Of a stretch of DNA of 64,000 bases, positions 970 through 51,858 are shown piece by piece. The translations under genes and the position numbers were made by a program. The DNA lies in contig JAPOYX010000198.1 of the NCBI GenBank assembly GCA_026706345.1, positions 47,828-111,827 of the forward strand. The letters are read 5' to 3'. The first letter of the stretch is position 1. Each line of letters starts with the position of its first letter. The stretch comes from Gemmatimonadota bacterium (GTDB lineage: Bacteria > JAAXHH01). A model generated the notes under the pieces. The model did not search any database, was not told the origin of the DNA, and saw nothing but the letters and a program-made list of their open reading frames with translations.

Positions 970-2477
970 TGAGAGCGATACCGACCACCGGCGCGACCGC
1001 CTTTCCCGTGGCCGGAGCCCTGCTGACCCTTGCCCTGCTCGTCCTCGCCTGCGGCGGTCCTTTGCAGTTCCGCGGCGGACCTTCCGGGCCGGAACGCCGC
1101 CTGGCAGAGGACATAGGCCGGATCCTGGACCACCCGGACCTGGCGCCCATGACCATAGGCGTGAAAGTCGTGTCGCCGGTCACCGGCCGAACCCTCTTCT
1201 CGCGGCATTCCGGCGGACTGTTTCATCCCGCGTCCAATACGAAGCTGTTCACCGCCGCGGGCGTCCTGCGTACCATGGGACCGGACTATCGCTATCTGAC
1301 GACCGTGTTCGGCGACGGAGACGCCTATGCCAGGGGCGATACCCTCTACACTTCGCTTTATCTTCTCGGCCGCGGAGACCCACTGCTGGAATCGGCGCAC
1401 CTGGACAGCCTCGCCGTCGTCGTCGCCGAATGGTGCGGGACGCGGGTCATCGCGGGCGACATCGTCGTCGACGACGCCTACCTGGACGGGGTACCCTACG
1501 GCGAAGGATGGATGTGGGACGACGTGCAGTACAGCTACTCCGCCTCGCTGAACGCGCTCTCGGTGAACGGCAACAGCGTGTGGATCGGTGTATCTCCCGG
1601 CGCCGCCGTCGGCGCGCCCGTGACGGTCCGAGTGGATCCGCCGACGACGTCCGTCACCTTCGAAGTGGAGGCCCTGACGGCGGCGGCCGGGGATACGTCG
1701 GCCGTCGAACCGCTCCGGGTCGAACGGGACTGGCCGGCGCGGTCCAACCGAATCGTCGTGACCGGCCGCCTCGGGATGGACGCGAAAGAGCAGGCATACT
1801 ACCGGTCCGTCGAAGAACCCGGGCTGTACGCGGGAAACCTGTTCCGGGACACGCTGCAGGGCCGCGGCATCCGCGTCACCGGCCCCGTGCGAAGGGGGAT
1901 CACGCCGACGCGCGCACGGGCGCTGGCGACGTGGTCATCGCCGGTGCCCGGGGCCCTGGCCCTTTTGCTCAAGTACAGCAGCAACCTGACGGCGGAACTG
2001 CTCGTTAAAACCATGGGACGCCACGTCACAGGCGAGACGGGTACGGCCGTCGACGGTCTGGCCGCGCTGCGGGGGGTCCTGACGGACTATATCGCCCTGG
2101 ACCCGGCCGCCTACCGGTTCGCCGACGGTTCCGGCCTGTCGTGGTACAACTACGTGTCCCCCGACCAGATCGTGGACCTGCTGACGGCCATGTACCACGA
2201 TGCCGCGATCGGCGGGAGCTTTCGGGAGGCATTGCCCGTCGCGGGAGTGGACGGCTCCCTGAGGAACCGGATGAAGGATACGGCGGCCATGGGCAATCTC
2301 CGGGCGAAGACCGGCACCCTGACCGGCGTGAGCTGCCTGAGCGGCTATGTAAGCACCCGGGACGGCGAACCCCTGGTCTTCTCGATCATGATGAACAATT
2401 TCGTCGGCCCGGCGTCGACCGCCCGTCGAGCGCAGGATGAAATCGGCGTCCTGCTGGCGGGTTTCAGTCGAAAGTGA
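966..2477 (+). CDS. dacB: D-alanyl-D-alanine carboxypeptidase/endopeptidase, PBP4 / peptidase S13 family.
   Basis: Present are an N-terminal signal/TM segment, the SxxK motif (SNTK), KTG (RAKTGTLTG), and the PBP4-like length of 503 aa. The start overlaps the thrC stop in an ATGA arrangement. Confidence 0.8.
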
Positions 2478-10610: not shown

Positions 10611-11858
10611 TCAGGCGCTCTGCTTGCTTTCCTTGCCCTGGACGTAGACGGGCGGCGCTTTTTCTTTCACGGTTTCCTCCGTAACGACGACCTCGCGCAG
10701 GTCGTCCCGCGTCGGCGCGTCGAACATCACGTCCAGCATCACTTCCTCGAGGATGGACCGCAACGAACGCGCGCCCGTCTTCTTGTCCATCGCCTCCTTC
10801 ACCACAGCCTGGAGGGCTTCGTCCGTGAAGGTCAGCTTGACGTCTTCCATTTCGAGCAGCCGCTGGTACTGCTTCACGAGGGCGTTCCTGGGCTTGAGCA
10901 GGATTTCCATCAGCGCATCGGCGTCGAGTTCGCCCAGCGTGGCGATCACGGGCAGCCTGCCGATGATTTCCGGTATCAGCCCGTACTGCAGCAGGTCGTC
11001 GGGTTCGACCCGGGCGAGGAGTTCACTCGTATTGCGGCCCGCGGAATTCTTCGACACGCCGCCGAATCCGATGGTCCCTTCCGCGGTCCGCCGTTCGATG
11101 ATCTGGTCGAGATCGTCGAAAGCGCCACCGCAGATGAAGAGGATGTTCCGCGTGTTGATCTGGACGAAGTTCTGTTCGGGGTGTTTCCGGCCGCCCTTCG
11201 GAGGTACGTTGGCGATGGTTCCTTCAAGCATCTTGAGCAGGGACTGCTGCACGCCTTCTCCCGACACGTCGCGGGTTATGGAGGGGTTGGCCGACTTGCG
11301 CGCCACCTTGTCGACCTCGTCGATATAGACGATGCCGCTTTCCGCTTTCGGCACGTCGTAATCCGCGGCCTGGAGCAGGCGGACCAGGACGCTCTCCACG
11401 TCTTCGCCCACGTATCCGGCTTCCGTGAGCACCGTGGCATCCGCGATGCAGAAGGGCACGTGCAGCATTTTCGCCAGGGTCTGGGCCAGCAGCGTCTTCC
11501 CGGTGCCCGTGGGGCCGATCAGCAGGATGTTGCTCTTCTCCAGTTCCACTTCGTCCTGCGCGGCGCCGTGCTGTATGCGCTTGTAATGGTTGTACACGGC
11601 AACGGAAAGCACCTTCTTGGCCTGTTCCTGGCCGATGACGTATTCGTCCAGCGCCTCCTTGATCTCCGTGGGCAGGGGGAGGTGCTCGACGGTCGACAGG
11701 GTGCTGCGGCTCATCTCCTCGGCGAGGATCCCGTTGCACATCAGGATGCACTCGTTGCAGATGTATACGTTCGGACCCGTGATGAGGCGTTCCACCTCGT
11801 CGGCGTTTCTATTGCAGAAGGAGCAGCGCAGGTCCCGCGACGCCGGTCGTTTCTTCAT
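10611..11858 (-). CDS. clpX: ATP-dependent Clp protease ATP-binding subunit ClpX.
   Basis: N-terminal zinc-binding [11 protein letters not shown]...CNEC, Walker [16 protein letters not shown], and the IGF-like loop. Confidence 0.95.
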
Positions 11859-42119: not shown

Positions 42120-44486
42120 TTAATCGAACAACTTGTGGACGAAACGGGTTCTCAGCGCCCTGGCCGCCCATTCCATGTTTCGTTCAATGTCCCGCCACAA
42201 CTGTTCGCCCGGTCCGGTGCCGTTTCCTTCCTCATAACCCAGACGACGGGCGAGAAACAGGAACTCCTGGGACGTCTTGTCCGGAAGGACCAGGTCCCTG
42301 GCGTTGCCGCGCACCATGCGCAGCGCGTTGATCAGCCTGACCAGGAAACGATACGCCGTGCCGAGCATGTCATGCTCCTCGTCCGAAAGGTAACCGGCCC
42401 CGTTCAGCGCTTCCATGGCCTCCAGCGTAGTCGGTCCGCGAACCGCCGAATTGCCGACGCCGTAGCGAATCTGCAGATCCTGTACGAAGTACTCGATGTC
42501 GATCAACCCGCCGTAACTGTATTTGACGTTGATGGCGCCGGTTTCGACCAATTCATCGTTCTGCCGTTCGCGCAGATGGGTCCATGAACGGCCGTCGACC
42601 GGGGCGTCGGCGTACACGAAGGCATCGCGGGCGGCCTCGACGTTCGCACCCAGGACCGGATCGCCCCCGATGGCGCGCAGCTTGATCAGCGCATGGCGCT
42701 CGTAGGGCAGGGCGCCGCCCTTTTCGTTGAAATACGCGTTGAACTTCTCGAGCGACGAGGCCAGCGCGCCCTTTTCGCCGTAGGGCCGAAGCCGGAGGTC
42801 GATTTCGAACAGGCCTTCTCTCCGGGATTCGATGGTGCCGCAGATCATGCGCACGAGCCGCTCGTAGTACTCCGAATTCAACACGGTCTGGGGGCCGCTC
42901 GTACTGCCCTGTCCGGCGTAGACGAACAGCAGTTCCATGTCGGATGCCCAGCCCAGTTCCCTGCCGCCGCATTTCCCCAGCGCACAGATACTGAAAACGC
43001 AGGGCGCGCCGGAGGGCAGCAGCGGCGCGCCGTATTGCCGGCGCTGCTCCCGGTCGCAGATATCGTACGCCGATTCCAGGATCACCTCGGCCAGCGTGGT
43101 GAGCTCACGGGAAAAGGCCTGGATGTCTTCGTGCTGCTCCAGGATCTCGCGCATGCTGATCCGCAGCATCTCCTTATCCTTGTAACGGTTCAGCAACTCC
43201 TTGCGGCGGGCGTAGCTTCCGACCCTGGACAACCGTGCGCCCAGTTCGCCTTCCATCTGCTCCCGCGATCTGACGATTCCGACCACCTTGATGTCCTGCA
43301 GCACGGGGAAGAGGTTCTTGTACTGCATCCTGAGGAAGTCTTTCCACAGGAAATCGCTTGTGCCGAAGAGCTTTGCCATCGCGGCGATTACTTCCTGCTT
43401 CTCCAGCTGGTCGAACATCTCTTCCATCGCCCGGCCGGGCCGGACGTTGGCCAGGACCTGGTCGATCAACTGGTTGAAATGTTCCAGGGCCTGGGCGGGA
43501 TTTGGCGCCCGGGTCAGCAGGTGGGTAAACTGCTTGATGAGCGCGATGACGAATCGCAGTTCCTGGAGTTTCCGCGGATCGGTGATCTTCGCTCCGCGCC
43601 GGTCGGTCACCTCGAGCGTATCCTGTACCTGGACTCCGGCGGCCGCGATATCGATGCGTCGAATGTTGATGTTACGCAGCGCCAGGGCGGTCGACAGGGC
43701 GTACAGAAACGCCGGCGTGTCCTGGCCCGTGATGCCGAGACGGGTCGCCCCGGACCCGGTGTCGTTGTCGATCGTCACATGCACCGGGAACATGGAGGAG
43801 GTCTCCGCTTCCTGCTCGCGACGGAGGTAGTCCACGACGCGCTCGTTGATCCTTCGCTGCAATGCGCCGGCGCTGTCCATGCGCAGACGGCGCATGGCGT
43901 CCTTGATTTCCAGCGTTATGGCGGGCCAGTCCGGCGGCTCCTCCGACGGCGCGTGCACCCGGAAGACATCCACGATCTTTCGCCGGGAACGCAGCGACGA
44001 CGAGGTGATGCCCGGCGGCGCGGCCGGAGTGCCCGAGCGAACACGGCGGCGACGTTGAAGCCGGGAGGACCGCTTGCCCGGATCGCCGGCCGGTTCCGCG
44101 TCGGCGTAGGTGAATACGTCCCCGCGGCGTATGCTCAGTCCGTTGGACGCCAGGAGTCCCGACAGGATGGAAATCACCGAGAGGTAATCGAAGGCCACGA
44201 CGGTAAGGCGCCACGTCGAATCGTCCAGGGGCTCCACGTCGACCTCCGCGGCGTTGTCCGGTCCAAGCCGGCTGATCATCCCGATGTGGCGCCGGATCAC
44301 TTCGGGCTCGTATCGCTCGAAATAGGCCGGCGCCATCCTGCCGATATGATCCCTGACCAGGATATCCGGCAAGTCATTGCCCTTGAGTTGTTCCGAAAGT
44401 TCCGCGAAAGGTACCGTATTCGTCATGCTCTGGTTCCGGGGTGGTTTGGCGGGACACAAAACTCCTAAGATACAAGATACATTCAA
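42120..44486 (-). CDS. GlnE-family nucleotidyltransferase (glutamine-synthetase adenylyltransferase-like), single catalytic module with an N-terminal ACT-like region.
   Basis: The nucleotidyltransferase motif ICALGKCGGRELGWASDMELLFVY matches the GlnE signature GKLGGxEL...SDxDLxF. A GlnE-type C-terminal helical domain is present. The N-terminal 120 aa resemble an ACT fold (RLTVVAFDYLSVISILSGLLASNG). At 788 aa it is shorter than two-module GlnE. Confidence 0.55.
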   Translation of the reverse strand: MNVSCILGVLCPAKPPRNQSMTNTVPFAELSEQLKGNDLPDILVRDHIGRMAPAYFERYEPEVIRRHIGMISRLGPDNAAEVDVEPLDDSTWRLTVVAFDYLSVISILSGLLASNGLSIRRGDVFTYADAEPAGDPGKRSSRLQRRRRVRSGTPAAPPGITSSSLRSRRKIVDVFRVHAPSEEPPDWPAITLEIKDAMRRLRMDSAGALQRRINERVVDYLRREQEAETSSMFPVHVTIDNDTGSGATRLGITGQDTPAFLYALSTALALRNINIRRIDIAAAGVQVQDTLEVTDRRGAKITDPRKLQELRFVIALIKQFTHLLTRAPNPAQALEHFNQLIDQVLANVRPGRAMEEMFDQLEKQEVIAAMAKLFGTSDFLWKDFLRMQYKNLFPVLQDIKVVGIVRSREQMEGELGARLSRVGSYARRKELLNRYKDKEMLRISMREILEQHEDIQAFSRELTTLAEVILESAYDICDREQRRQYGAPLLPSGAPCVFSICALGKCGGRELGWASDMELLFVYAGQGSTSGPQTVLNSEYYERLVRMICGTIESRREGLFEIDLRLRPYGEKGALASSLEKFNAYFNEKGGALPYERHALIKLRAIGGDPVLGANVEAARDAFVYADAPVDGRSWTHLRERQNDELVETGAINVKYSYGGLIDIEYFVQDLQIRYGVGNSAVRGPTTLEAMEALNGAGYLSDEEHDMLGTAYRFLVRLINALRMVRGNARDLVLPDKTSQEFLFLARRLGYEEGNGTGPGEQLWRDIERNMEWAARALRTRFVHKLFD

Positions 44487-44581
44487 CCCTGCGTAAAATC
44501 AACCGTAACACGCATTTGTGCAGCGCGCCTCCGTACGTGCACGCACGTGCCTAAAAAAACGCGGTCTGTCCACTTTTTTCT

Positions 44582-44609
44582 TGACAGCCCTACAAAACGT
44601 TATATTATT
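44582..44609 (+). promoter_or_regulatory. Strong sigma70-like promoter upstream of the DtxR-like gene: TTGACA, 16 bp spacer, TATTAT.
   Basis: TTGACA at 44582-44587 is followed by a 16-bp spacer and TATTAT at 44604-44609. It sits in a roughly 200-bp AT-rich intergenic region, which is unusual in this GC-rich window. Confidence 0.5.
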
Positions 44610-44647
44610 CGAAGCCATGTTTGAATAGCCAAACTTTTCATTGTGCC

Positions 44648-44665
44648 GGCAACACGATTGTTGCC
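44648..44665. promoter_or_regulatory. Perfect inverted repeat GGCAACA-cgat-TGTTGCC between the promoter and the repressor start codon. It is a candidate operator or RNA hairpin.
   Basis: The 7-bp arms are exact reverse complements. It lies 18 bp upstream of the ATG at 44683. A second inverted repeat, GTTTGaatagcCAAAC, lies at 44620-44635. Confidence 0.35.
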
Positions 44666-44682
44666 ATAACGAATCGGACAAA

Positions 44683-45216
44683 ATGATGGATGTCTGGAGA
44701 GAATTCGAGCACAACGAGATCACGCACAGCGGCGCGCACTACCTGATGACGGTGCAGCAGCTGATCGAGGACCAGGGATACGCCCGGGTATCGGACGTGG
44801 CCCGGGAGATGCATATCACGCCGGGCAGTGCGTCGATCATGATCAAGTCGCTCCGGGAAAAGGGATACCTGGAAGAGGACCGGAACCGGTTCCTCAAACT
44901 CTCGGAGGAAGGGAACCGGCTGGCGCAGTCGGTATGGTCGCACCGGCAGATCCTCATCGCCTTTCTCAAGGGCGTCCTGCATATCGACGCGGAACAGGCG
45001 GAAATCGACGCGTGCAAGATCGAGCACCTAATCAGCACGACGACCGGAGAGCGGCTGCTGCTCTTCCTGCAGTTCCTCCTGTCGGACGATCCCCACGGCA
45101 GGGCGTTTCTCAAGTCCTACTGGGACGCCAACGTGCTGTCGATCTGCGACTTCGAAACCTGCGCGGTTTGCGAGGAAGTGGGCGAATGCCTGGTTATCCG
45201 ATCGGAGTCGGCGTGA
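44683..45216 (+). CDS. DtxR/MntR-family metal-dependent transcriptional repressor with an unusual Cys-rich C-terminal tail.
   Basis: N-terminal wHTH (YLMTVQQLIEDQGYARVSDVAREMHITPGSASIMIKSLREKGYL) and a DtxR dimerisation/metal-binding region. The C-terminus CDFETCAVCEEVGEC has 4 Cys and replaces the usual SH3-like domain. ATG at 44683 is preferred over the TTG at 44641 in the ORF track. Confidence 0.8.
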   Translation: MMDVWREFEHNEITHSGAHYLMTVQQLIEDQGYARVSDVAREMHITPGSASIMIKSLREKGYLEEDRNRFLKLSEEGNRLAQSVWSHRQILIAFLKGVLHIDAEQAEIDACKIEHLISTTTGERLLLFLQFLLSDDPHGRAFLKSYWDANVLSICDFETCAVCEEVGECLVIRSESA

Positions 45217-45274
45217 GGGACGTGGAAGCATTCGGTATCCTGACGGCGGGACACGCGCCGTCAGAAAACAAAAA

Positions 45275-45316
45275 GGGACTATCGCGACATGGCCCGGCAA
45301 GCCCGGCGATAGTCCC
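45275..45316. repeat. REP-like hairpin element, copy 1: GGGACTATCG, 22 bp spacer, CGATAGTCCC.
   Basis: A 10-bp perfect inverted repeat at 45275-45284 and 45307-45316 is preceded by AAAAAG. It lies 59 bp after the DtxR-like stop. A second hairpin TGACGGCG...CGCCGTCA lies at 45241-45263. Confidence 0.5.
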
Positions 45317-45513
45317 TGGCAGGACAGGTATAACTGTCCCTGAGGGCGGTACGGACGTACGCGACCCTCTTATTCTATAGTATAAGGAAACCGCCATGAC
45401 GGGTCAATACTATAACGGGTCGATTCCGACGAAAGGGGATACTGCCTATCCGAAAAACACCTTTCAGTTCCGTAGCGAGTACCGGCATCGGACCTTCTGA
45501 CGCGAGATAACCC

Positions 45514-45780
45514 ATGCATTCCGAACTCTTTACCACCAGCACGCAAGCAAAGACTATTCGCCTGGATGAGCTGAAATCGGGCGAGAAGGCAACGATAAGG
45601 CAGATCAAGGGCACGGCGGGAGAAGAAGTACACCTGATGGAACTTGGGCTGCTCCCCGGGACAACCGTCGAATTGATCAAACGCGCACCCATGGGCGATC
45701 CGATCGAGATACGCGTTCGGAGTTACCACCTGTCCATTCGCTGCGCGGAGGCCCGTTCGGTCATGGTGGAAAGAAGTTGA
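45514..45780 (+). CDS. feoA: Ferrous iron transport protein A.
   Basis: 88 aa with an SH3-like FeoA signature (LDELKSGEKATIRQI...GLLPGTTVELIKRAPMGDPIEIRV). Confidence 0.8.
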   Translation: MHSELFTTSTQAKTIRLDELKSGEKATIRQIKGTAGEEVHLMELGLLPGTTVELIKRAPMGDPIEIRVRSYHLSIRCAEARSVMVERS

Positions 45781-45798
45781 ACTAAAGGGTAGAAAAAA

Positions 45799-45837
45799 GG
45801 ACTATCGGTTCGGCTGGCCGGCTCTCCCCGATAGTCC
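45799..45837. repeat. REP-like hairpin element, copy 2: GGACTATCGG, 19 bp spacer, CCGATAGTCC.
   Basis: It has the same arm sequence as copy 1 (core GACTATCG / CGATAGTC). It is preceded by AAAAAAGG and lies 19 bp after the feoA stop. The loop is related (GGCCGGC versus GGCCCGGC). Confidence 0.5.
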
Positions 45838-45948
45838 TTGGACCAGGGGGATACGTACACTTGGCGAGTACAATCCGGTCCCGGCCTGTTTTGAAATATA
45901 CGCCCCCTGGCGGCCGCTGTCAATTCCACAGGTTTACCCGGGGGCTAA

Positions 45949-47154
45949 ATGCTTCGTAAAACTATCTTCTGGATCCATCTCTCGTCGGGCGTAATCGCCG
46001 GCATTGTCATTCTGATCATGTCGGTGACCGGCGTGCTGCTCACCTTCCAGAGCCAGATCGTCGACTTCGCCAACCGGGAATACGCCACGGTCCATCCTCC
46101 CCATCCCCGTGCCGAGCGCATGGATCTAGACGTGGTGCTCGCGGCGGTCCGGAGCATCGAGCCCGAGGCGGAGCCCACCTCCGTCACCATACGTCCCGAT
46201 CCGACCGAGGCGTACGTCGTGCGATACGGTCGTGCGAAAACCGTCTTCGTCGACCCCTATTCAGGGGATGTCCGGGGCGAAGGCAATATCGCCGTCCGTA
46301 ATTTCCTCCGGGAAATCATGTACTGGCACCGCTGGTTCGGCGCGGAAGGCGAAAACAGGGCGGTCGCCCGCGCGGTCACAGGCGCCTGCAACCTGGCGTT
46401 CTGCCTGCTGACCATCACGGGGCTGTACATCTGGTGGCCCCGCAAGTGGACCCTGGCGGCGTTCAAGGCCGTCTTTGTCCCGAACTTCAAGACGCGCGGA
46501 AAGAGCCGGGATTTCAACTGGCACAATTCCTTCGGCATCTGGTGCCTTCCAGCCCTTTTCCTGATCTCGCTGAGCGGGGTGGTCATCTCCTATCGTTGGG
46601 CCGGTGACCTGGTCTACGCGCTCACGGGTACGGAACCCCCTCAACGGGCTGTGCAATCCGCATCGGAACCGGCAACGCCCGGGGACGAATCCGCACCGTT
46701 GCCAGCCGCTCCCTCCGAATCCTTTCTGGCCGCGGCACGAAAGCAGGTGCCGGAATGGGCGTACATCACGCTGAACCTGCCGAAGGAAGGCGCGGAAACC
46801 ACCACGCTGAACGTATCTGAAATGGATAACCGCATACCGCTGACCCGCTCCACCCTTACCGTGTCCACGACAGATGCAGGGATAGTCGAATGGGTACCTT
46901 TCACCAGCCTGAACATGGGACGACAGATCCGCACCTGGCTGCGTTGGATCCATACGGGTGAAGCGGCAGGATGGTTCGGCCAGCTCATCGCGGGCGTGGC
47001 CTCCGCCGGAGGCGTGGTCCTGGTCTGGACGGGGCTCTCGTTGGCATGGAGACGTTTCCGAAGATTCAACAAAACACGGCAAGACAGGACATTCACGACA
47101 AAGGATATACCAGGAGAATCCGATGAAGAACCAAAGCTTGCTCGCACAGGATGA
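45949..47154 (+). CDS. PepSY-associated TM-helix protein (PiuB/FoxB-like putative ferric-siderophore reductase).
   Basis: MLRKTIFWIHLSSGVIAGIVILIMSVTGVLLTF is the hallmark PepSY_TM N-terminus. It has 4 TM segments with conserved His, and is 401 aa long. Confidence 0.75.
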   Translation: MLRKTIFWIHLSSGVIAGIVILIMSVTGVLLTFQSQIVDFANREYATVHPPHPRAERMDLDVVLAAVRSIEPEAEPTSVTIRPDPTEAYVVRYGRAKTVFVDPYSGDVRGEGNIAVRNFLREIMYWHRWFGAEGENRAVARAVTGACNLAFCLLTITGLYIWWPRKWTLAAFKAVFVPNFKTRGKSRDFNWHNSFGIWCLPALFLISLSGVVISYRWAGDLVYALTGTEPPQRAVQSASEPATPGDESAPLPAAPSESFLAAARKQVPEWAYITLNLPKEGAETTTLNVSEMDNRIPLTRSTLTVSTTDAGIVEWVPFTSLNMGRQIRTWLRWIHTGEAAGWFGQLIAGVASAGGVVLVWTGLSLAWRRFRRFNKTRQDRTFTTKDIPGESDEEPKLARTG

Positions 47155-47524
47155 GGAAAACCAGACGCGGGTGTATTCGTGCCATTCCGGGCATATCCAC
47201 GTCATCTACCGGCGCATCAATATCGCCCTGTCGACGGGTGAATTCCGCGAACTCCTGGACTGCGTCGTACAGACCTTCGAGTACATTCAGAAACAAAGCC
47301 CGGAGCGTATGGAATCGAAACACATCGACGTGACGTTCGACGACACGGTCGTAAAAATGCCCCTGCCCGGCTTCAGGACGTTCGTACAAGTCCTCAGACG
47401 GGCGATGACCAGTTTCCAGAGACTATCGGGTGTATACAACAAGCCCTCCGGAGTGGAAGCGGAATACATAGCCAACGGCAAGCTCATTCCGTTTGCACCC
47501 TGCAGGTACAACCAATTGAATTGA
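47123..47524 (+). CDS. Hypothetical protein of 133 aa between the PepSY-TM gene and feoB.
   Basis: The ATG at 47123 overlaps the upstream gene by 32 bp. This stretch is markedly lower in GC (about 52%) than the window average. The ORF is clean, contains a CHSGH segment, and I could not assign a family. Confidence 0.45.
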   Translation: MKNQSLLAQDEENQTRVYSCHSGHIHVIYRRINIALSTGEFRELLDCVVQTFEYIQKQSPERMESKHIDVTFDDTVVKMPLPGFRTFVQVLRRAMTSFQRLSGVYNKPSGVEAEYIANGKLIPFAPCRYNQLN

Positions 47525-47642
47525 CTGGTCGGCCTGGAAAGCCTGCCCGCATCGCTTTTTATTCCCTTTTAGCATGTATTGCGTTATATTTGGTCTGATC
47601 CGGGCGTGACGGTTTCCCGGTCCTATAGCGACACCGTTTCCA

Positions 47643-49903
47643 TGCCAGAACGCTCCATGGACATGACCGAAACTACCGATACATTCACGGCGCGTGAATC
47701 CGCGTTCGACGTACTCCTCGTCGGCAACCCGAATACCGGCAAGACGTCCGTATTCAATTCTCTGACCGGGCTCCGGCAGAAAACGGGCAACTATCCCGGC
47801 GTGACCGTGGAGAAGAAGACGGGCATCGTGGCGGGGCCGGACGGCGGCACGCTTCGTCTCCACGACATGCCCGGAATGTACAGCCTTACCCCGAAGTCTC
47901 TCGACGATTCCATCGCACGGGAGGTGCTGATCGGGGAAGCGGACGAGAACCTGGACATCCGGCTCATCGTGGTTGTTGCGGACGCCTCGAATCTCAACAG
48001 GAACCTCTACCTGGTTACCCAGCTCATCGACCTCGGCATCCCCGTCGCCGTGGCCATGAACATGATGGACAACGCCGTCAGCAGCGGCGTCCACATCGAT
48101 CTGGACGCACTCTCCGATCAACTGAAGGTCCCGATCGTACCCGTAATCGCTTCACGTCAACAGGGAATAGACGAGTTGCGACAGATGATGTTCGACCAGA
48201 TCGGTCCGGGGGGATCGGAAACGCGGCCAGCCGGATCGCCGGAAGAGGCTGCGCAGGGATCGATCGGACCCGCCTCGGGTCCGGCCAGGGTTTCTTTCGC
48301 CGAACGGTTTCCGCGGCGGCGTCTGCTGGGCGGCCTGCTCGACGAAGCGCTCTCTCCCGCTGCGGCCTGGTTCGGAGCACACACGAAACTGAACGAGGTA
48401 GCGCAGACTTCGGAAGCACTGCGGGTGACTTCGAGCGACCAGGCGCTGCAGACGTGGATGGAAGGCCGCCAGGACGCCTCCTGCAGAGACGACCTGAAAC
48501 GCATCGTGGAGCAGGTGCGGGGCAGGCTGGACGAGATACAGGTGCCCTGGCGGATGCTGGAGACCATTCTGCGGTATGACCAGATCGACGAGCTCTATTC
48601 CAAGGTCGTGCGGGAGGAACGAGATACCCAGGCCAGGCCAAGCGTCCGGCTGGACCGCGTGTTCACCCACCGGGTGGCCGGCCCCGCCATCGTACTGATC
48701 GTGTTCGCACTGGTCTTCCAGTCCATCTTCTCCTGGGCAGAAACGCCCATGACGCTCATCGAGGACGGAGTCGGCGCCCTGGGCGCCTTCGTCTACCAGT
48801 TTCTGCCGGAAGGCCTGTTGCGCAACCTGCTCGTGGACGGCGTCATTGCCGGGGTGGGCGCCGTGCTGGTCTTTCTCCCCCAGATCCTCTTTCTCTTCTT
48901 CTTCCTGGCTCTGCTCGAAGATACGGGCTACATGGCCCGCGTAGCCTTTATCATGGACCGTTTCATGAAGAGCATGGGACTGTCGGGCCATTCGGTCATG
49001 CCGCTGCTTTCGTCCTTTGCCTGCGCGATACCGGGCATCATGGCGACGCGGACGATCTCGAACTGGAAGGACCGCCTGATCACGATCATGATCGCGCCGC
49101 TGATGAGCTGCAGCGCCCGCCTGCCCGTATACATCCTGCTGATCGGCGCCTTCTTCCCGTCCATGACGATTTTGGGCGTATTCACGCTGCAGGGCCTCAT
49201 GCTGTTCACCATGTACATCTTCGGGATTGTCGTCGCTATCGCCGCGGCGCTGGTGTTCAAGCGGTTTTTCATGAGGGACGCCGTTCCCACGAGTTTCGTC
49301 ATGGAACTGCCGCCCTACCGGCTGCCCTCCCTCAAGTGGGTTTTGCTGCAAATGTTCGAACGGGCGAAGGTCTTCGTGACGGAGGCGGGCCAGATCATAC
49401 TGGCCATATCGGTCGTCCTCTGGTTCCTCGCCTCGTACCCGCAACCCGACGACTACGATACCATGTCGTCCAGGTCGCGCATACAACAGAGTTACGCCGG
49501 CCAGCTCGGCCAGCTGATCGAACCGGCCATCGAGCCCCTCGGGTTCGACTGGAAGGTGGGTATCGGCCTCATCACGTCCTTCGTCGCCAGGGAAGTGCTG
49601 GTCAGCACCATGGCCACGATCTACAACGTGGAGGAGGCCGACGAGACCTCGGTCGATCTCCGAACGTCGCTCCAGAACGAGGTGGATCCGGAAACGGGCG
49701 AGCGGGTATACACACCGCTTGTGGCGGTCGCCCTCATGGTGTTCTTCGCCCTGGCCTGCCAGTGCATGGCCACGGTCGCCATCGTGAAGCGGGAGACCAG
49801 CAGTTGGCGATGGCCCATCGTCATGATCGCGTACATGACCGCCCTGGCCTATATCGGATCTTTCGTTGTCTACCAGGGAGGATTGCTCCTGGGATACGGG
49901 TAG
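47643..49903 (+). CDS. feoB: Ferrous iron transport protein B.
   Basis: G-domain motifs VLLVGNPNTGKTSVFN (G1) and NMMD (G4). A GDI/helical domain follows, then the polytopic membrane domain with gate motifs. Length is about 753 aa. Confidence 0.9.
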
Positions 49904-49953
49904 CTGCCATCGGATCGTTTGGCATTTAACCGTTCCGTCGTTATCTTGTCATC

Positions 49954-50145
49954 ATGGATCTTCAAACCCTGATCGTTGCCATAACCGTTGGAATCGCGGC
50001 CGCGTTTGTCGTTCGCACCTTCACGCGGCAGTTCACGTCCCGGGGCCGGAAGGGATGCGCAAGCTGCAGCCACGGCGGCTCGGGCGGCCAGCCAGGCGCA
50101 TCGCGGGATGGCGATCTGATACAGGTGGAATCGATCCGGGAATAG
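49954..50145 (+). CDS. FeoB-associated Cys-rich membrane peptide.
   Basis: 63 aa. An N-terminal TM helix (LIVAITVGIAAAFVV) is followed by CASCSHGG. It sits immediately after feoB. The family assignment is from memory. Confidence 0.55.
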   Translation: MDLQTLIVAITVGIAAAFVVRTFTRQFTSRGRKGCASCSHGGSGGQPGASRDGDLIQVESIRE

Positions 50146-50180
50146 CTTCAGTCCACAAACGCAGATCGACACCAGACCAC

Positions 50181-50747
50181 ATGTCCGTACTCGATACAAT
50201 CCGGAACAGACGGTCGATTTACGAATTCAGGACGGAACCGGTCCCCCGGGAAGTGATCGCCCGTGTGCTCGAAACGGCCGTGTGGGCGCCGAACCACAAG
50301 CTGACGGAACCCTGGCGCTTCCTGGTCGTCACGGGGAAGACCAAGGAGGCCCTGGCGACCATCTACTGCAAGATCCAGCGTGAAAAAACGAAGTCGGACG
50401 ACTCCGGTATCCTGCGGAAGGCCACTGAAAAGGGTTATGCCAAGATCATGTCCAAGCCCGCCGTCATCGGCGTGGTCTGCAAGAAGGACGAGGACGCCTT
50501 CCGCGCGCGCGAGGACTATGCCGCCACCTGCTGCGCTATTCACAACATCGCGCTGGCCGCCTGGGAAGAGGGCATCGGCATGCAGTGGAGCACGGGAGGG
50601 CTTATCCGGGATCCCGAGACGCTGGAACTGCTGAAAATCGATTCACGTGAAGAAGAAATCATCGGATTCCTCTACACAGGTTATCCGGCGCAGGTCCCCG
50701 CCCAGAAAAGAATACCCGCCGCCGAACGAACCGAATGGTTCGGCTGA
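50181..50747 (+). CDS. Nitroreductase-family protein.
   Basis: MSVLDTIRNRRSIYEFR...PNHKLTEPWRFLVV are classic nitroreductase/FMN-binding motifs. Length is 188 aa. Confidence 0.75.
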   Translation: MSVLDTIRNRRSIYEFRTEPVPREVIARVLETAVWAPNHKLTEPWRFLVVTGKTKEALATIYCKIQREKTKSDDSGILRKATEKGYAKIMSKPAVIGVVCKKDEDAFRAREDYAATCCAIHNIALAAWEEGIGMQWSTGGLIRDPETLELLKIDSREEEIIGFLYTGYPAQVPAQKRIPAAERTEWFG

Positions 50748-50807
50748 CGCATCCATAGACTTCTTCCATAGGACAAATACGCAACCTCGAAACACCCTGG
50801 AGCCGCC

Positions 50808-51344
50808 ATGTCCGTAGTTTCCGAAGTTCGATTCGCATCGGGATTCCACTGGGAAGACTACATGCGGAACAGCGAGAAGAATCTCGAAAGGTTCAATGAA
50901 AATTACGAGAAAGCAAACCTGGATCCGGAGGATGCGCGGTTCCTCGCCTCCATCACGACGCCCTTGAAGGTGCTCATCCTCGCGGAGGACTGGTGCGGCG
51001 ACGTGGTGCAAAGCCTTCCACCCATCGTCCGCATGTTGGAGCAGAGCCCGGCCATCGCGTACCGGATCTTCCGCAGGGACGAGAACCTGGACATCATGGA
51101 CCGGTATCTCACTGACGGTTCCAGGGCCATTCCCTATCTCGTCTTTATGGACGACGGCCTGAACGAGGTGGCCCGGTGGGGACCACGCCCGGACGAATGC
51201 CAGGCGATCATGCGGGACAACAAGGGCAGGATCCCCATGGAAGACATCTACCCCCGCATCCGTTCCTGGTACAGGCAACACGGGAACGGCCCGCTCGTGA
51301 CGGAAATCCGGGGCGTCCTCGAACGAATCAAGCGGACCGCATGA
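50808..51344 (+). CDS. Thioredoxin-fold protein (monothiol, WCGDV motif).
   Basis: ILAEDWCGDVVQSLPPI sits in the thioredoxin active-site position but has only one Cys. Length is 178 aa. Confidence 0.55.
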   Translation: MSVVSEVRFASGFHWEDYMRNSEKNLERFNENYEKANLDPEDARFLASITTPLKVLILAEDWCGDVVQSLPPIVRMLEQSPAIAYRIFRRDENLDIMDRYLTDGSRAIPYLVFMDDGLNEVARWGPRPDECQAIMRDNKGRIPMEDIYPRIRSWYRQHGNGPLVTEIRGVLERIKRTA

Positions 51345-51351
51345 TCCTTCC

Positions 51352-51858
51352 ATGGCCGAAACCGTCACGGAAATCAAGCACAACACTGGCAAGCCCGACC
51401 AGTCCTTCTCGTGCCGCCTGCTCTACCACGGGGGCAGCCGCATGGTGATTTCCTACCGGTCCACCCGGGAATACCGGCAGGGGGACATCCGGATTCCCCC
51501 GGGCACGCTGACCCTGGCCTATTACGAAGAAGGACTGCCCCACATCCTGTGGAAGATGATCGGACCGGACGGAAGCCTCGTCGGGCACTACGTACACCTC
51601 TGCGACCGGGTACGGATCGGACCGGACCACGTTGAGTATGACGACCAGTTGCTTGACCTGTGGTTCTTTCCGGACGGCGGCTGCCGCGTGCTGGACGAGG
51701 ACGAACTGCGGCAGGCCGCTGACAACGGACTGATCGAACCTGATACGGCGGATCGCGTAAGGACAACTGCCGGGGATGTCGTGCGCCGTATCCACACGAT
51801 CACGGCGGATTTCGACGCGCTGCTCGACAGCCGCGGACTTGCTCAGCACGCCAGCTAG
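51352..51858 (+). CDS. DUF402-like protein.
   Basis: 168 aa. LDLWFFPDGGCRVLDEDELRQAADNGLI resembles the DUF402 core. The call comes from resemblance only. Confidence 0.45.
   Translation: MAETVTEIKHNTGKPDQSFSCRLLYHGGSRMVISYRSTREYRQGDIRIPPGTLTLAYYEEGLPHILWKMIGPDGSLVGHYVHLCDRVRIGPDHVEYDDQLLDLWFFPDGGCRVLDEDELRQAADNGLIEPDTADRVRTTAGDVVRRIHTITADFDALLDSRGLAQHAS

Follow-up and report, generated by a model that had tools for sequence, protein, structure and literature searches.

Putative metal-regulated reductive iron-uptake operon with a FoxB-like PepSY_TM protein and antisense RNA-like units in uncultured Gemmatimonadota

The feo locus described here, located in a window of 64,000 nucleotides (the whole stretch of DNA that was analysed), probably constitutes a metal-regulated, vertically inherited operon through which an uncultured clade of Gemmatimonadota would take up iron reductively. 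Pfam and NCBIfam scans confirm the six genes listed in the first-pass annotation of this DNA, with the positions and identities it gave them, and ORF133 is without a match in either collection:

44686–45216, + strand: regulator gene, metal-dependent DtxR/MntR family; PF01325 (Fe_dep_repress) and PF02742 (Fe_dep_repr_C)
45514–45780, + strand: feoA (88 aa); PF04023, E 6.7e-21
45949–47154, + strand: PepSY_TM gene (401 aa); PF03929 over its full length, E 1.6e-54
47123–47524, + strand: ORF133, a conserved soluble Cys/His protein; the first 32 nt of the ORF overlap the 3' end of the PepSY_TM gene
47657–49903, + strand: feoB (748 aa); FeoB_N, two Gate domains and FeoB_C; TIGR00437 at 522.8 bits (cut-off 315.65)
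49954–50145, + strand: Cys-rich small membrane protein, FeoB-associated-like (63 aa); PF12669 at 23.2 bits (gathering score 27, not reached)

The genes from the regulator to feoB and the peptide gene are preceded by tamB and a glnE-like gene and followed by a nitroreductase and a thioredoxin-like gene, and this block is syntenic at the same chromosomal position in 10/10 species genomes of the clade, with the same arrangement on further metagenome contigs. Several relatives were recovered from sponge metagenomes. The right-hand border drawn earlier at 50150 is arbitrary, as the nitroreductase gene follows the peptide gene after only 35 nt and no terminator-like site was found between them.

A lower GC content of this region (50-58% versus 65%) had been taken as a sign of horizontal acquisition. 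The drop is real but small, at 59.3% versus 62.3% in the rest of the window, and the right flank also has only 60.5% GC. It results mostly from the 15% of the island (845 nt) that is non-coding at 52.7% GC, with coding GC at 60.4% versus 62.4 ± 2.5% for flank genes. GC3 pooled over the six genes, computed from per-gene values, is 0.78, compared with a mean of 0.779 (sd 0.040) for 30 flank genes, and the synonymous-codon chi-square of island versus flanks (55.8, 41 df, p = 0.06) falls within the range of control blocks of contiguous flank genes (45.6–74.6). The idea of a recently acquired genomic island, with its lower GC reflecting foreign origin, could draw on the island having a lower GC than any other stretch of equal length in the window (bottom 0.7% of windows, within a range of only 58.9–65.6%) and on the individually low values of feoA (GC3 0.65) and ORF133 (overall GC 53%). 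However, the uniform GC3 and codon usage, the lack of any tRNA gene or flanking direct repeats found at the island, and the position shared by ten genomes do not support horizontal acquisition, and no mobility genes were found there either; an acquired island is thus already contradicted and extremely improbable.

The PepSY_TM gene encodes a putative di-haem membrane ferric reductase of the FoxB type. Its AF2 model (pLDDT 80.5) comprises a 4-TM bundle and two periplasmic PepSY-like domains, and the sole significant match of the model in the PDB is FoxB (7abw; Foldseek E 7.5e-15, TM 0.64–0.70), at 17–18% sequence identity. Four His residues, H10, H127, H192 and H335, are unchanged across 22 homologues, and H192 aligns with the haem ligand H198 of FoxB. 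This fold and these residues bear out the earlier proposal of a ferric-reductase-like protein inside a Feo operon, and point to haem binding and reductase activity. Every clade member has the gene between feoA and feoB, with no other importer nearby, so that this arrangement is standard across the clade, which likewise speaks against horizontal acquisition. Outside the clade it appears unusual: among 70 more distant PepSY_TM loci, for which DNA was fetched up to 10 kb per side (some contigs being shorter), feoB occurs near the gene in only two, and inside the operon in neither. No paper describing a PepSY_TM gene inside a feo operon was found in the literature.

In relatives, the operon also contains a cassette of porin-like, ApbE, FMN_bind and His-rich 4-TM genes, which is located between the regulator gene and feoA in L006/L013, L007, L012 and L014, and upstream of feoA in L107, whose contig ends short of the regulator. 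The cassette is also present in the Zixibacteria locus L087 and in L097 and L108, loci without PepSY_TM. No TonB-dependent receptor gene is found at the locus, and no porin gene in the 64 kb window. Together with the FoxB fold and the four His residues, the redox cassette in related operons upholds the suggestion that the reduction of Fe(III) is probably coupled to the import of Fe(II). Alternatively, the PepSY_TM protein may not feed FeoB and may merely be co-regulated with feo, serving in xenosiderophore iron release for another importer, in signalling or in redox protection. [quoted passage not shown] However, it is unlikely given the constant position of the gene between feoA and feoB and the absence of another importer nearby, and the different extracytoplasmic redox module placed directly before feoAB in related operons speaks for reduction and Feo being functionally linked. 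A plausible history is that the ancestral operon used the porin/ApbE/FMN-binding/His-rich 4-TM cassette as its reductase module, that this clade gained the PepSY_TM–ORF133 pair, along with an RNA-like unit (unit B, below), by insertion between feoA and feoB, and that the cassette was later lost in the lineage of the window.

ORF133 has 30 close homologues with 65–100% identity, with C20, H24, H26 and C47 as invariant residues; only 8 matches came from a profile search against 1.84 billion representatives. Its AF2 model (pLDDT 76) has a bbbba + bba topology with weak PUR-alpha/2nvn/2it9-like matches, and its distant homologues adjoin a PepSY_TM gene, a TonB-dependent receptor gene, or HmuY-like and flavodoxin genes. 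The protein is cut to 52 aa in L009, L011, L094 and L100, and L016 and L107 do not have it at all; it therefore cannot be essential. Probably translationally coupled to the PepSY_TM gene, ORF133 may encode a dispensable cytoplasmic partner of its product. Downstream of ORF133, the following element precedes feoB:

47553–47600, + strand: conserved block 5' of feoB, GCTTTTTATTCCCTTTT ... GCGTTATATTTGG, with a -10 hexamer TATATT at 47585–47590

This block is conserved in 10 loci, whereas the DNA upstream of it is not, and it may represent an internal promoter of feoB, with a poor -35 element and a site left uncalled by the promoter scan. The Cys-rich peptide is kept 3' of feoB in all orthologues (54–85% identity), and the L006 orthologue scores 22.6 bits against PF12669, a family known 3' of feoB in species without feoC (PMC8749426).

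The regulator gene heads the operon and is accompanied by four control elements:

44581–44608, + strand: sigma-70-like regulator promoter, TTGACA, 16 nt, TATTAT; 11/12 consensus positions
44617–44636, no strand assigned: candidate operator ATGTTTGAATAGCCAAACTT, an imperfect inverted repeat (ATGTTT / AAACtT) just 3' of the -10
44648–44665, + strand: 5' leader hairpin of the regulator, GGCAACA cgat TGTTGCC; -11.6 kcal/mol, z -2.6
45240–45264, + strand: strong hairpin right after the regulator stop codon; -18.6 kcal/mol, z -4.6

Both promoter hexamers are invariant in 11 orthologous loci, and the leader hairpin is conserved in 11 loci, tolerating a 17-nt loop insertion in L007. In the hairpin after the stop codon both arms vary among orthologues while pairing is kept, and no T-run follows it on the + strand. 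The candidate operator is the top match to ATGTTT-N(2-10)-AAACAT in the 64 kb window (11/12 positions), and perfect palindromes with the same half-site occupy the same place after the -10 of subfamily regulator genes in other phyla (L089, L088, L097). Matches in the window are not above chance (5 versus 3.5 expected), so 44617–44636 is no more than a candidate operator; the motif search suggested in the first-pass annotation yielded this site at the regulator promoter, but none shared with the feoB promoter or the promoter of unit A. Beyond the regulator promoter, the scan called + strand promoters only at the start codon of feoB and 3' of that gene, and none was detectable between the regulator promoter and the feoB region, suggesting that the regulator promoter probably also drives feoA, the PepSY_TM gene and ORF133.

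Residues of the regulator are counted from the ATG at 44683 (177 aa). The protein consists of two domains, without an SH3-like domain, and ends in a C-x4-C-x2-C-x5-C tail (CDFETCAVCEEVGEC). This tail had been described as replacing the SH3-like domain; it is present, but the two-domain MntR-type architecture is normally without that domain. Nor is the tail peculiar to this locus, as it occurs (C-x4-6-C-x2-C-x3-5-C) in 83/120 top homologues from several phyla, marking a conserved trait of a widespread subfamily. Among four out-group Cys-tail regulators examined, three adjoin iron-uptake genes, in two cases feoAB, with Cys-tail regulators directly upstream of feoAB in L087 and L089. Compared with Bacillus subtilis MntR, D8, E11 and E99 are replaced by H19, M22 and C111, and H77 by Arg, whereas E114 and H115 are kept; H19, C111, E114 and H115 are invariant in 116 homologues. 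From these residues we infer a DtxR-like metal site composed of His/Cys/Glu/His. The Cys/Glu/His set stands at the positions of DtxR C102, E105 and H106, the Fe-sensing primary site of DtxR, with the His at the position of DtxR Met10 and the H79/H77-equivalent ligand missing.

The operon might alternatively serve manganese uptake, with the regulator as an MntR orthologue and FeoB importing Mn(II), as FeoB2 of Porphyromonas gingivalis does. The top NCBIfam matches of the regulator are indeed MntR equivalogs (E 1.5e-20), a manganese sensor, its closest solved structures are MntR, and it shares the two-domain architecture of MntR. However, its MntR score is far under the curated cut-off (73.7 versus 138 bits), as it is under every NCBIfam equivalog cut-off, three of the six MntR carboxylate/His ligands are changed to His, Met and Cys, and the remaining Cys/Glu/His set is invariant in the subfamily and DtxR-like. 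In addition, it is hard to see what Mn(II) uptake would need a ferric-reductase module for, be it of the PepSY_TM or the ApbE/FMN_bind kind. A manganese operon is thus very unlikely, and iron is the presumed metal of both the regulator and FeoB.

The two intercistronic spacers flanking feoA contain what appear to be previously undescribed small-RNA-like genes, antisense to the operon. The units are paralogous, each consisting of a promoter, a structured body and a terminator:

45379–45407, - strand: unit A promoter, TTGACC, 17 nt, TATACT; 10/12 consensus positions
45264–45374, - strand: unit A, three hairpins, of which the third is a terminator stem (arms 45316–45306 and 45285–45275) followed by UUUUUGUUUU
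45895–45923, - strand: unit B promoter, TTGACA, 17 nt, TATATT; 11/12 consensus positions
45791–45888, - strand: unit B, a long hairpin and a terminator stem (arms 45837–45829 and 45807–45799) followed by UUUUUU

Unit A is 90–95% identical within the clade, compared with 63–81% at four-fold degenerate sites of neighbouring genes, and is also found 3' of the regulator gene in L097, L108/L113 and the Zixibacteria locus L087. Its structure shows covariation, with 8/32 pairs changed on both sides, a count reached in 0/500 shuffles and compared with 0–2 in slid controls. Unit B is present in every clade locus covering its spacer (87–98% identity, again higher than at synonymous sites), and no covariation was seen among its sequences, which are too similar to one another. 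The unit A covariance model matches unit B over its full length on the - strand only (E 7.6e-5), and no Rfam family matches either unit. The conserved structures could also belong to the + strand, as processing or stability hairpins of the operon mRNA, or be protein-binding DNA palindromes: symmetric stems mean that covariation leaves the strand unfixed, and the folds of unit A on the two strands are nearly equal in stability (MFE -51.9 kcal/mol, z -4.2, on the - strand versus -51.0 kcal/mol on the + strand). This reading is somewhat unlikely, however, as each unit has near-consensus -35 and -10 hexamers at a fixed 17-nt spacing on the - strand, where the stem is followed by a U-run, whereas on the + strand an A-run precedes the stem and no T-run follows. 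Conservation of the promoter hexamers reaches as far as Zixibacteria; the -35 and the spacing of the unit A promoter are invariant in 11 loci, the Zixibacteria locus among them, and both hexamers of the unit B promoter are conserved in 12 aligned sequences (the window and 11 loci) with a variable spacer sequence. Unit B further favours the - strand, folding 6 kcal/mol better there (-43.0 kcal/mol, z -3.4, versus -37.0, z -1.4) and containing four invariant G-U pairs that would become A-C mismatches on the + strand.

Collectively, these features are consistent with a model in which the regulator is an Fe(II) sensor and acts on the palindrome at 44617–44636 to repress its own promoter. When iron is scarce, the PepSY_TM di-haem protein would move electrons from a presumed donor across the inner membrane and reduce periplasmic Fe(III), free or chelated, after which FeoB would import Fe(II) with the aid of FeoA and the small Cys-rich membrane peptide. 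The two paralogous small RNAs would be transcribed antisense from both intercistronic spacers, and their role is probably to modulate the mRNA of the operon or to act in trans.

Among known systems, FoxB, FpvG, HiuB and VciB (COG3182 inner-membrane reductases) share PF03929, the 4-TM fold and the four conserved His with the PepSY_TM protein. In Caulobacter, FeoAB is the proposed importer of Fe(II) released by HiuB (PMC12424826), the same division of labour between periplasmic reduction and Feo import as proposed here, and the extracytosolic iron reductase activity reported for Vibrio cholerae VciB (PMC8238504) fits such a periplasmic role. However, those systems adjoin TonB-dependent receptors or stand alone, whereas the PepSY_TM gene here lies inside a feo operon without a receptor gene, and its translation is probably coupled to that of a novel 133-aa protein. 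Flavinylation-associated PepSY-like clusters occur together with ApbE and VIT1, an Fe(II) transporter (Meheust et al. 2021, PMC8238504), likewise setting an extracytoplasmic electron-transfer module beside an Fe(II) importer, and in relatives of the present locus the operon includes genes for ApbE and an FMN_bind protein. In those clusters, however, the importer is VIT1 (or P19/FTR1) rather than Feo and the flavinylated partner is usually DUF2271, and the window itself is without the ApbE cassette, which was presumably lost. Compared with FeoAB(C) operons, both the SH3-like FeoA and FeoB, with its G domain, two Gate domains and FeoB_C, are canonical and above curated thresholds, and the PF12669-like peptide follows feoB as in feoC-less species (PMC8749426); in contrast, feoA and feoB are separated by the PepSY_TM gene, ORF133 and an antisense RNA-like unit, feoC is absent, and a dedicated DtxR-family regulator gene heads the operon.

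Like DtxR/IdeR (Fe) and MntR (Mn), the regulator combines a winged-helix DNA-binding domain with a dimerisation/metal domain, and its candidate palindromic operator overlaps the transcription start; it differs from DtxR/IdeR in having no third, SH3-like domain, and from all of them in its sub-threshold equivalog scores and in a Cys tail that no Pfam model covers. RyhB, the PrrF1/PrrF2 pair, FsrA and IsaR1 are iron-responsive small RNAs. Like these, units A and B are about 100 nt long with their own promoter and intrinsic terminator, and they are likewise duplicated and located in an iron-uptake locus adjoining a metalloregulator gene. However, the units have no sequence or Rfam relation to those RNAs, and their orientation antisense to the intercistronic spacers of their own operon suggests that they may act in cis.

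The operon at 44490-50150 appears to be a lineage-specific variant of the Feo iron-uptake operon with an embedded, predicted FoxB-type reductase. The locus also includes a Cys4-tailed DtxR-family regulator linked to feo, a new small accessory protein and a pair of antisense units that resemble sRNA genes, all with functions likewise predicted. All six genes named by the first-pass annotation are present with Pfam and NCBIfam assignments that agree with its identifications, and the 133-aa open reading frame (ORF133) gave no family match.

Features of the operon and its spacers (window positions)
44581-44608, plus strand: conserved promoter of the regulator gene
44617-44636: candidate operator ATGTTTGAATAGCCAAACTT, an inverted repeat 3' of the regulator promoter and the best of its type in the window
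44686-45216, plus strand: DtxR-family regulator (PF01325 and PF02742; C-terminal end CDFETCAVCEEVGEC)
45264-45374, with promoter to 45407, minus strand: sRNA-like unit A (promoter, structured body, intrinsic terminator)
45407-45379, minus strand: unit A promoter, TTGACC-17-TATACT
45514-45780, plus strand: feoA (PF04023, 74.6 bits, cut-off 23)
45791-45888, with promoter to 45923, minus strand: sRNA-like unit B (promoter, structured body, intrinsic terminator)
45923-45895, minus strand: unit B promoter, TTGACA-17-TATATT
45949-47154, plus strand: PepSY_TM gene (PF03929, 186.2 bits, cut-off 28.8, profile positions 1-295 of 295)
47123-47524, plus strand: ORF133, whose start overlaps the PepSY_TM gene end by 32 nt
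47657-49903, plus strand: feoB (TIGR00437, 522.8 bits, cut-off 315.65)
49954-50145, plus strand: 63-aa FeoB-associated-like peptide (PF12669, 23.2 bits, gathering score 27)

FeoB comprises an N-terminal G domain (PF02421, 3.1e-54), two Gate (nucleoside-recognition) membrane domains (PF07670, matched in two stretches) and FeoB_C (PF07664); feoA, for a small SH3-like protein, shares its operon, yet lies 1.9 kb upstream of feoB. The gene for the 63-aa peptide is found 50 nt 3' of feoB in all orthologues. Its product starts with a TM helix and then has a Cys-rich motif (MDLQTLIVAITVGIAAAFVV...GCASCSHGG); its match to PF12669 is sub-gathering (E 8.5e-5, profile positions 1-39 of 44; 22.6 bits for the orthologue on metagenome contig L006). 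A survey of Feo architectures mentions PF12669 downstream of feoB but neither a reductase nor DtxR (PMC8749426). No convincing terminator fold was found 3' of ORF133 or of the peptide gene, and a plus-strand terminator scan was also empty. Nitroreductase-family, Thioredoxin_9 and DUF402 genes (50181-51858, plus strand), syntenic in all relatives, begin 35 nt after the peptide gene with no terminator-like site before the nitroreductase gene; they could be cotranscribed with the feo operon, and a flavin nitroreductase could act as a cytoplasmic electron source.

The PepSY_TM protein has four His residues (H10, H127, H192 and H335) that are invariant among 22 homologues down to 40% identity. Its homologue profile matches FoxB (7abw), a membrane ferrisiderophore reductase, and all four His align with FoxB His residues, H192 being aligned to H198, which the FoxB paper assigns as a haem ligand. 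The AF2 model (pLDDT 80.5) returned chain 7abw_B as its sole significant PDB match (E 7.5e-15, TM 0.64/0.70 over 395 columns), and in this model a four-helix TM bundle is capped by two PepSY domains, with the four conserved His in or near the TM helices as predicted ligands of two b-type haems.

Scanning 185,579 species genomes with the PepSY_TM alignment yielded 80 loci, which were then searched by tblastn with the window proteins. In the ten closest, where PepSY_TM is 70-91% identical, the gene order as far as contigs reach is glnE-like, regulator, feoA, PepSY_TM, (ORF133), feoB, peptide, nitroreductase and thioredoxin-like, and the same order recurs on metagenome contigs L002-L006, L094, L100 and L107. 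The remaining 70 loci, from Acidobacteriota, Verrucomicrobiota, Myxococcota and others, encode PepSY_TM proteins 38-50% identical, and only 2 of them carry feoB within the fetched DNA (up to 10 kb per side, some contigs being shorter), namely L017 at about 3 kb and L079 at about 7 kb on the other strand. A PepSY_TM gene inside feo, between feoA and feoB, is therefore the rule in this clade and uncommon elsewhere. The block was inherited and is not an island. The left neighbour of the block (42120-44486, minus strand; 788 aa, 768 as called) has both a GlnE and a GlnD_UR_UTase domain, plus a weak ACT match, an unusual nucleotidyltransferase architecture that is conserved beside tamB in all relatives. 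Two relatives with the same operon (L010 and L015, PepSY_TM 87-90% identical) are labelled Candidatus Latescibacterota and the others Gemmatimonadota, probably a binning or taxonomy inconsistency. The window matches ENA contig ERZ23496111 ROBB21-1 scaffold_476, and its ORF133 product is identical to a protein with the annotation 'MAG: Gemmatimonadetes bacterium'. Close relatives include MAGs with sponge-metagenome names (APA_bin_41, IRC1_bin_16, PetF contigs), some labelled Latescibacterota or "bacterium".

The first-pass annotation had instead taken a compositional shift as a sign of horizontal acquisition. The dip on which that reading drew is real but weak: the segment has 59.3% GC against 62.3% in the remaining window (60.5% in the right flank), not 50-58% against 65% as had been estimated. 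Its coding DNA has 60.4% GC and its spacers, 845 nt or 15% of the segment, 52.7%; the visible dip reflects mainly spacer density, not foreign origin. GC3 and codon usage proved uniform across segment and flanks: pooled GC3 of the six genes was 0.78 against a flank mean of 0.779 (sd 0.04, 30 genes), with the regulator (0.84) and feoB (0.82) above that mean and feoA (0.65) the sole gene under the flank range, and the synonymous-codon chi-square (55.8, 41 df, p 0.06) fell within the 45.6-74.6 obtained for equal-sized blocks of flank genes. The block occupies the same chromosomal position in all 10 species genomes, with no patchy presence among relatives, and no tRNA gene, flanking direct repeat or integrase/transposase was found among its neighbours. 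Horizontal acquisition is thus not supported; the first-pass annotation is correct at the level of genes and wrong in its evolutionary interpretation.

A second redox module occurs at the same locus in relatives. Between regulator and feoA, a four-gene cassette is present in L006/L013, L007, L012 and L014 (3021-6389 in L006), and in L107 it stands upstream of feoA on a contig that stops short of the regulator. It is also found in L097, L108 and the Zixibacteria locus L087, all three without PepSY_TM, while the contig of L113, nearly identical to L108, covers only the regulator end up to the porin-like gene; the window itself has no cassette. The four products are a porin-like protein (about 424 aa, signal peptide, terminal Phe), ApbE (E 2.1e-65), an FMN_bind protein (21.3 bits, cut-off 22) and a His-rich four-TM protein of 164 aa. 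Together they resemble a channel in the outer membrane and a flavin-dependent reductase in the periplasm that has a membrane electron conduit of its own, so that the cassette is probably an alternative module for periplasmic Fe(III) reduction. Its spread implies an ancestral part of the locus; the PepSY_TM-ORF133 pair would then have entered between feoA and feoB within the Gemmatimonadota clade, and the cassette would have been lost later in the lineage of the window. The presence of two different redox modules before or inside the same feoAB operon provides the strongest contextual support for coupled Fe(III) reduction and Fe(II) import, which we infer for this operon.

ORF133, without a family match, is a genuine gene, with 30 homologues at 65-100% identity in which C20, H24, H26 and C47 are invariant and one Cys is conserved near the C-terminus. 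The family is tiny (8 matches among 1.84 billion representatives). The AF2 model (pLDDT 76, residues 1-104 confident) has a bbbba plus bba topology, for which two programs gave weak PUR-alpha/2nvn/2it9-like matches. Distant homologues (24% identity) lie next to a PepSY_TM gene in L091/L092 (Pfam 7.9e-44 for PepSY_TM), after TonB-dependent receptor and DUF4856 genes in L128, and between HmuY-like and flavodoxin genes in L129, neighbourhoods that point to iron limitation; the membrane protein downstream of the L128 homologue was considered as a PepSY_TM protein and is not one. One subclade (L011, at 11229-11387, L009, L094 and L100) retains a 52-aa remnant of ORF133, fused by deletion to the block upstream of feoB, and L016 and L107 lack the gene; it is therefore accessory rather than essential. 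The 956-aa protein P0151, composed of 'RVYTCHSNVIHIFLRTLDTAVIQMCLLS' repeats, has 14 stretches that match the ORF133 profile, and looks like a translated tandem DNA repeat and not a true relative.

The regulator gave Pfam matches to PF01325 and PF02742 only, with no SH3-like (FeoA-like) C-terminal domain, and its last 35 residues form a Cys tail. It shares two domains with the three-domain DtxR/IdeR repressors but lacks the third, and it scores 35.8 bits against the NCBIfam DtxR equivalog (cut-off 290). Its best named matches are to MntR, well under the cut-off (73.7 versus 138 bits), and the B. subtilis MntR ligands D8, E11, H77, E99, E102 and H103 align with H19, M22, R88, C111, E114 and H115, a partial replacement that, with the score, argues against an MntR manganese repressor. 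H19, C111, E114 and H115 are invariant among 116 regulator homologues. The primary, Fe-selective site of DtxR consists of Met10, C102, E105 and H106. Mapping through the MntR alignment, we take C111, E114 and H115 to occupy the C102, E105 and H106 positions and H19 the Met10/Asp8 position, and on this mapping the regulator is predicted to sense Fe(II). The tail, C-x4-6-C-x2-C-x3-5-C, has no Pfam model. It is carried by 83 of the best 120 homologue clusters, which come from Gemmatimonadota, Zixibacteria, Calditrichota, Latescibacteria, Sumerlaeia and others. This subfamily often adjoins iron-uptake genes: of four out-group regulators inspected, two (L087 and L089) lie directly upstream of feoA-feoB and one (L088) upstream of a TonB-dependent receptor gene, with the fourth (L090) in an unrelated context.

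The inverted repeat at 44617-44636 may be the operator of this regulator, and perfect palindromes of the same half-site occur 3' of the -10 hexamer in L089 (CAGATGTTTTA ctaa TAAAACATCTG), L088 and L097. The motif search proposed at the outset for the promoters of the locus produced a candidate site at the regulator promoter, but no shared operator: scans for TATTTGAATA-type and ATGTTT-N-AAACAT-type motifs gave a convincing site there only, with none claimed at the feoB or unit A promoter. A second match at 45886-45899 overlies the -10 hexamer of unit B, and both that match and the total count are within chance. Two hairpins flank the regulator coding sequence. A conserved 7-bp hairpin lies in its 5' leader (44648-44665, plus strand), with a 17-nt loop insertion in L007, and a strong one (45240-45264, plus strand; -18.6 kcal/mol, z -4.6) stands directly 3' of the stop codon, with arm changes that compensate each other between orthologues; since an A-run rather than a T-run follows, the latter is not a canonical plus-strand terminator.

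The regulator-feoA and feoA-PepSY_TM spacers show stronger conservation than the adjacent genes: identity is 87-98% in the spacers and their units, compared with 46-91% (mostly 63-81%) at the neighbours' four-fold degenerate sites. Units A and B have promoters that match 10-11 of 12 consensus positions, with elements conserved in 11-12 loci, structured bodies of about 100 nt (z -4.2 for A, -3.4 for B), and, read on the minus strand, a long stem and then a U-run. Copies of unit A follow the regulator gene in L097, L108/L113 and Zixibacteria L087 too, with invariant promoter hexamers and rewritten inner stems. In its alignment 94% of cells are paired, and two-sided changes occur in 8 of 32 pairs against 2.2 +/- 1.3 in shuffled alignments (0 of 500 shuffles reach 8) and 0-2 pairs in slid alignments. 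The unit A covariance model finds unit B at full length on the minus strand only (E 7.6e-5), and neither that model nor blastn found another unit elsewhere in the window. In unit B four G-U pairs are invariant, and its minus-strand fold is better by 6 kcal/mol; no covariation was seen in its sequences, which are too conserved. Unit A is missing from L008, L009, L011 and L016; unit B is present in every clade locus covering its spacer.

These features suggest that A and B are paralogous antisense sRNA-like elements without a described family. A riboswitch or other known RNA in the long spacers was considered and rejected: neither unit matched any family in an Rfam E-value search of 43500-51500, whose single hit, 5_ureB_sRNA, was a sub-threshold chance match (20.1 bits, gathering score 40). 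No plus-strand promoter was called between the regulator promoter and the feoB start codon, so that each unit probably lies opposite one long transcript of the operon; the units may act in cis or in trans. When metagenomes were scanned for the terminator-arm pattern, 35 loci came up. Most are unrelated chance matches such as human gut contigs, and only L094, L097, L100, L107, L108 and L113 are true relatives. One more exact copy of the terminator-arm word GGACTATCG lies at 1283-1291 (plus strand), isolated and without a partner arm.

Collectively, three conserved items without a described family (the Cys4-tailed DtxR subfamily, the Cys/His protein ORF133 and the antisense sRNA-like pair) accompany the feo and PepSY_TM genes. 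A joint reading, which we put forward tentatively and consider doubtful as a whole, is that the locus adds a new regulatory and accessory layer to a reductive Feo system. The two putative paralogous sRNAs (about 100 nt, antisense in the intercistronic spacers, one shared by Gemmatimonadota and Zixibacteria) might, under control of the regulator or jointly with it, tune or uncouple the operon or run a trans iron-sparing regulon, the tail of the regulator as an Fe(II) sensor might bind a second metal or an Fe-S cluster, and the PUR-like Cys/His protein ORF133 might be a dedicated cytoplasmic partner of PepSY_TM reductases.

How Feo, which imports Fe(II), obtains its substrate where oxygen is present is a question that keeps returning. 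Reduction in the periplasm is the usual assumption, often with no reductase identified, Sphingobium being one example (PMC7376174). In the literature searched, PepSY_TM genes were not described as members of feo operons. Among known systems, FoxB and FpvG reduce ferrisiderophores in the periplasm (bioRxiv 10.1101/2021.01.28.428567), V. cholerae VciB has reported extracytosolic iron reductase activity, PepSY-like clusters occur together with ApbE and with VIT1, an Fe(II) importer (PMC8238504), and in Caulobacter FeoAB is the proposed importer of iron that HiuB releases (PMC12424826). In the present clade and its relatives, a putative reductase module, either the FoxB-type PepSY_TM protein or the porin/ApbE/FMN-binding/His-rich cassette, is encoded inside the feo operon itself, and the locus offers a compact gene set for testing coupled reduction and import.
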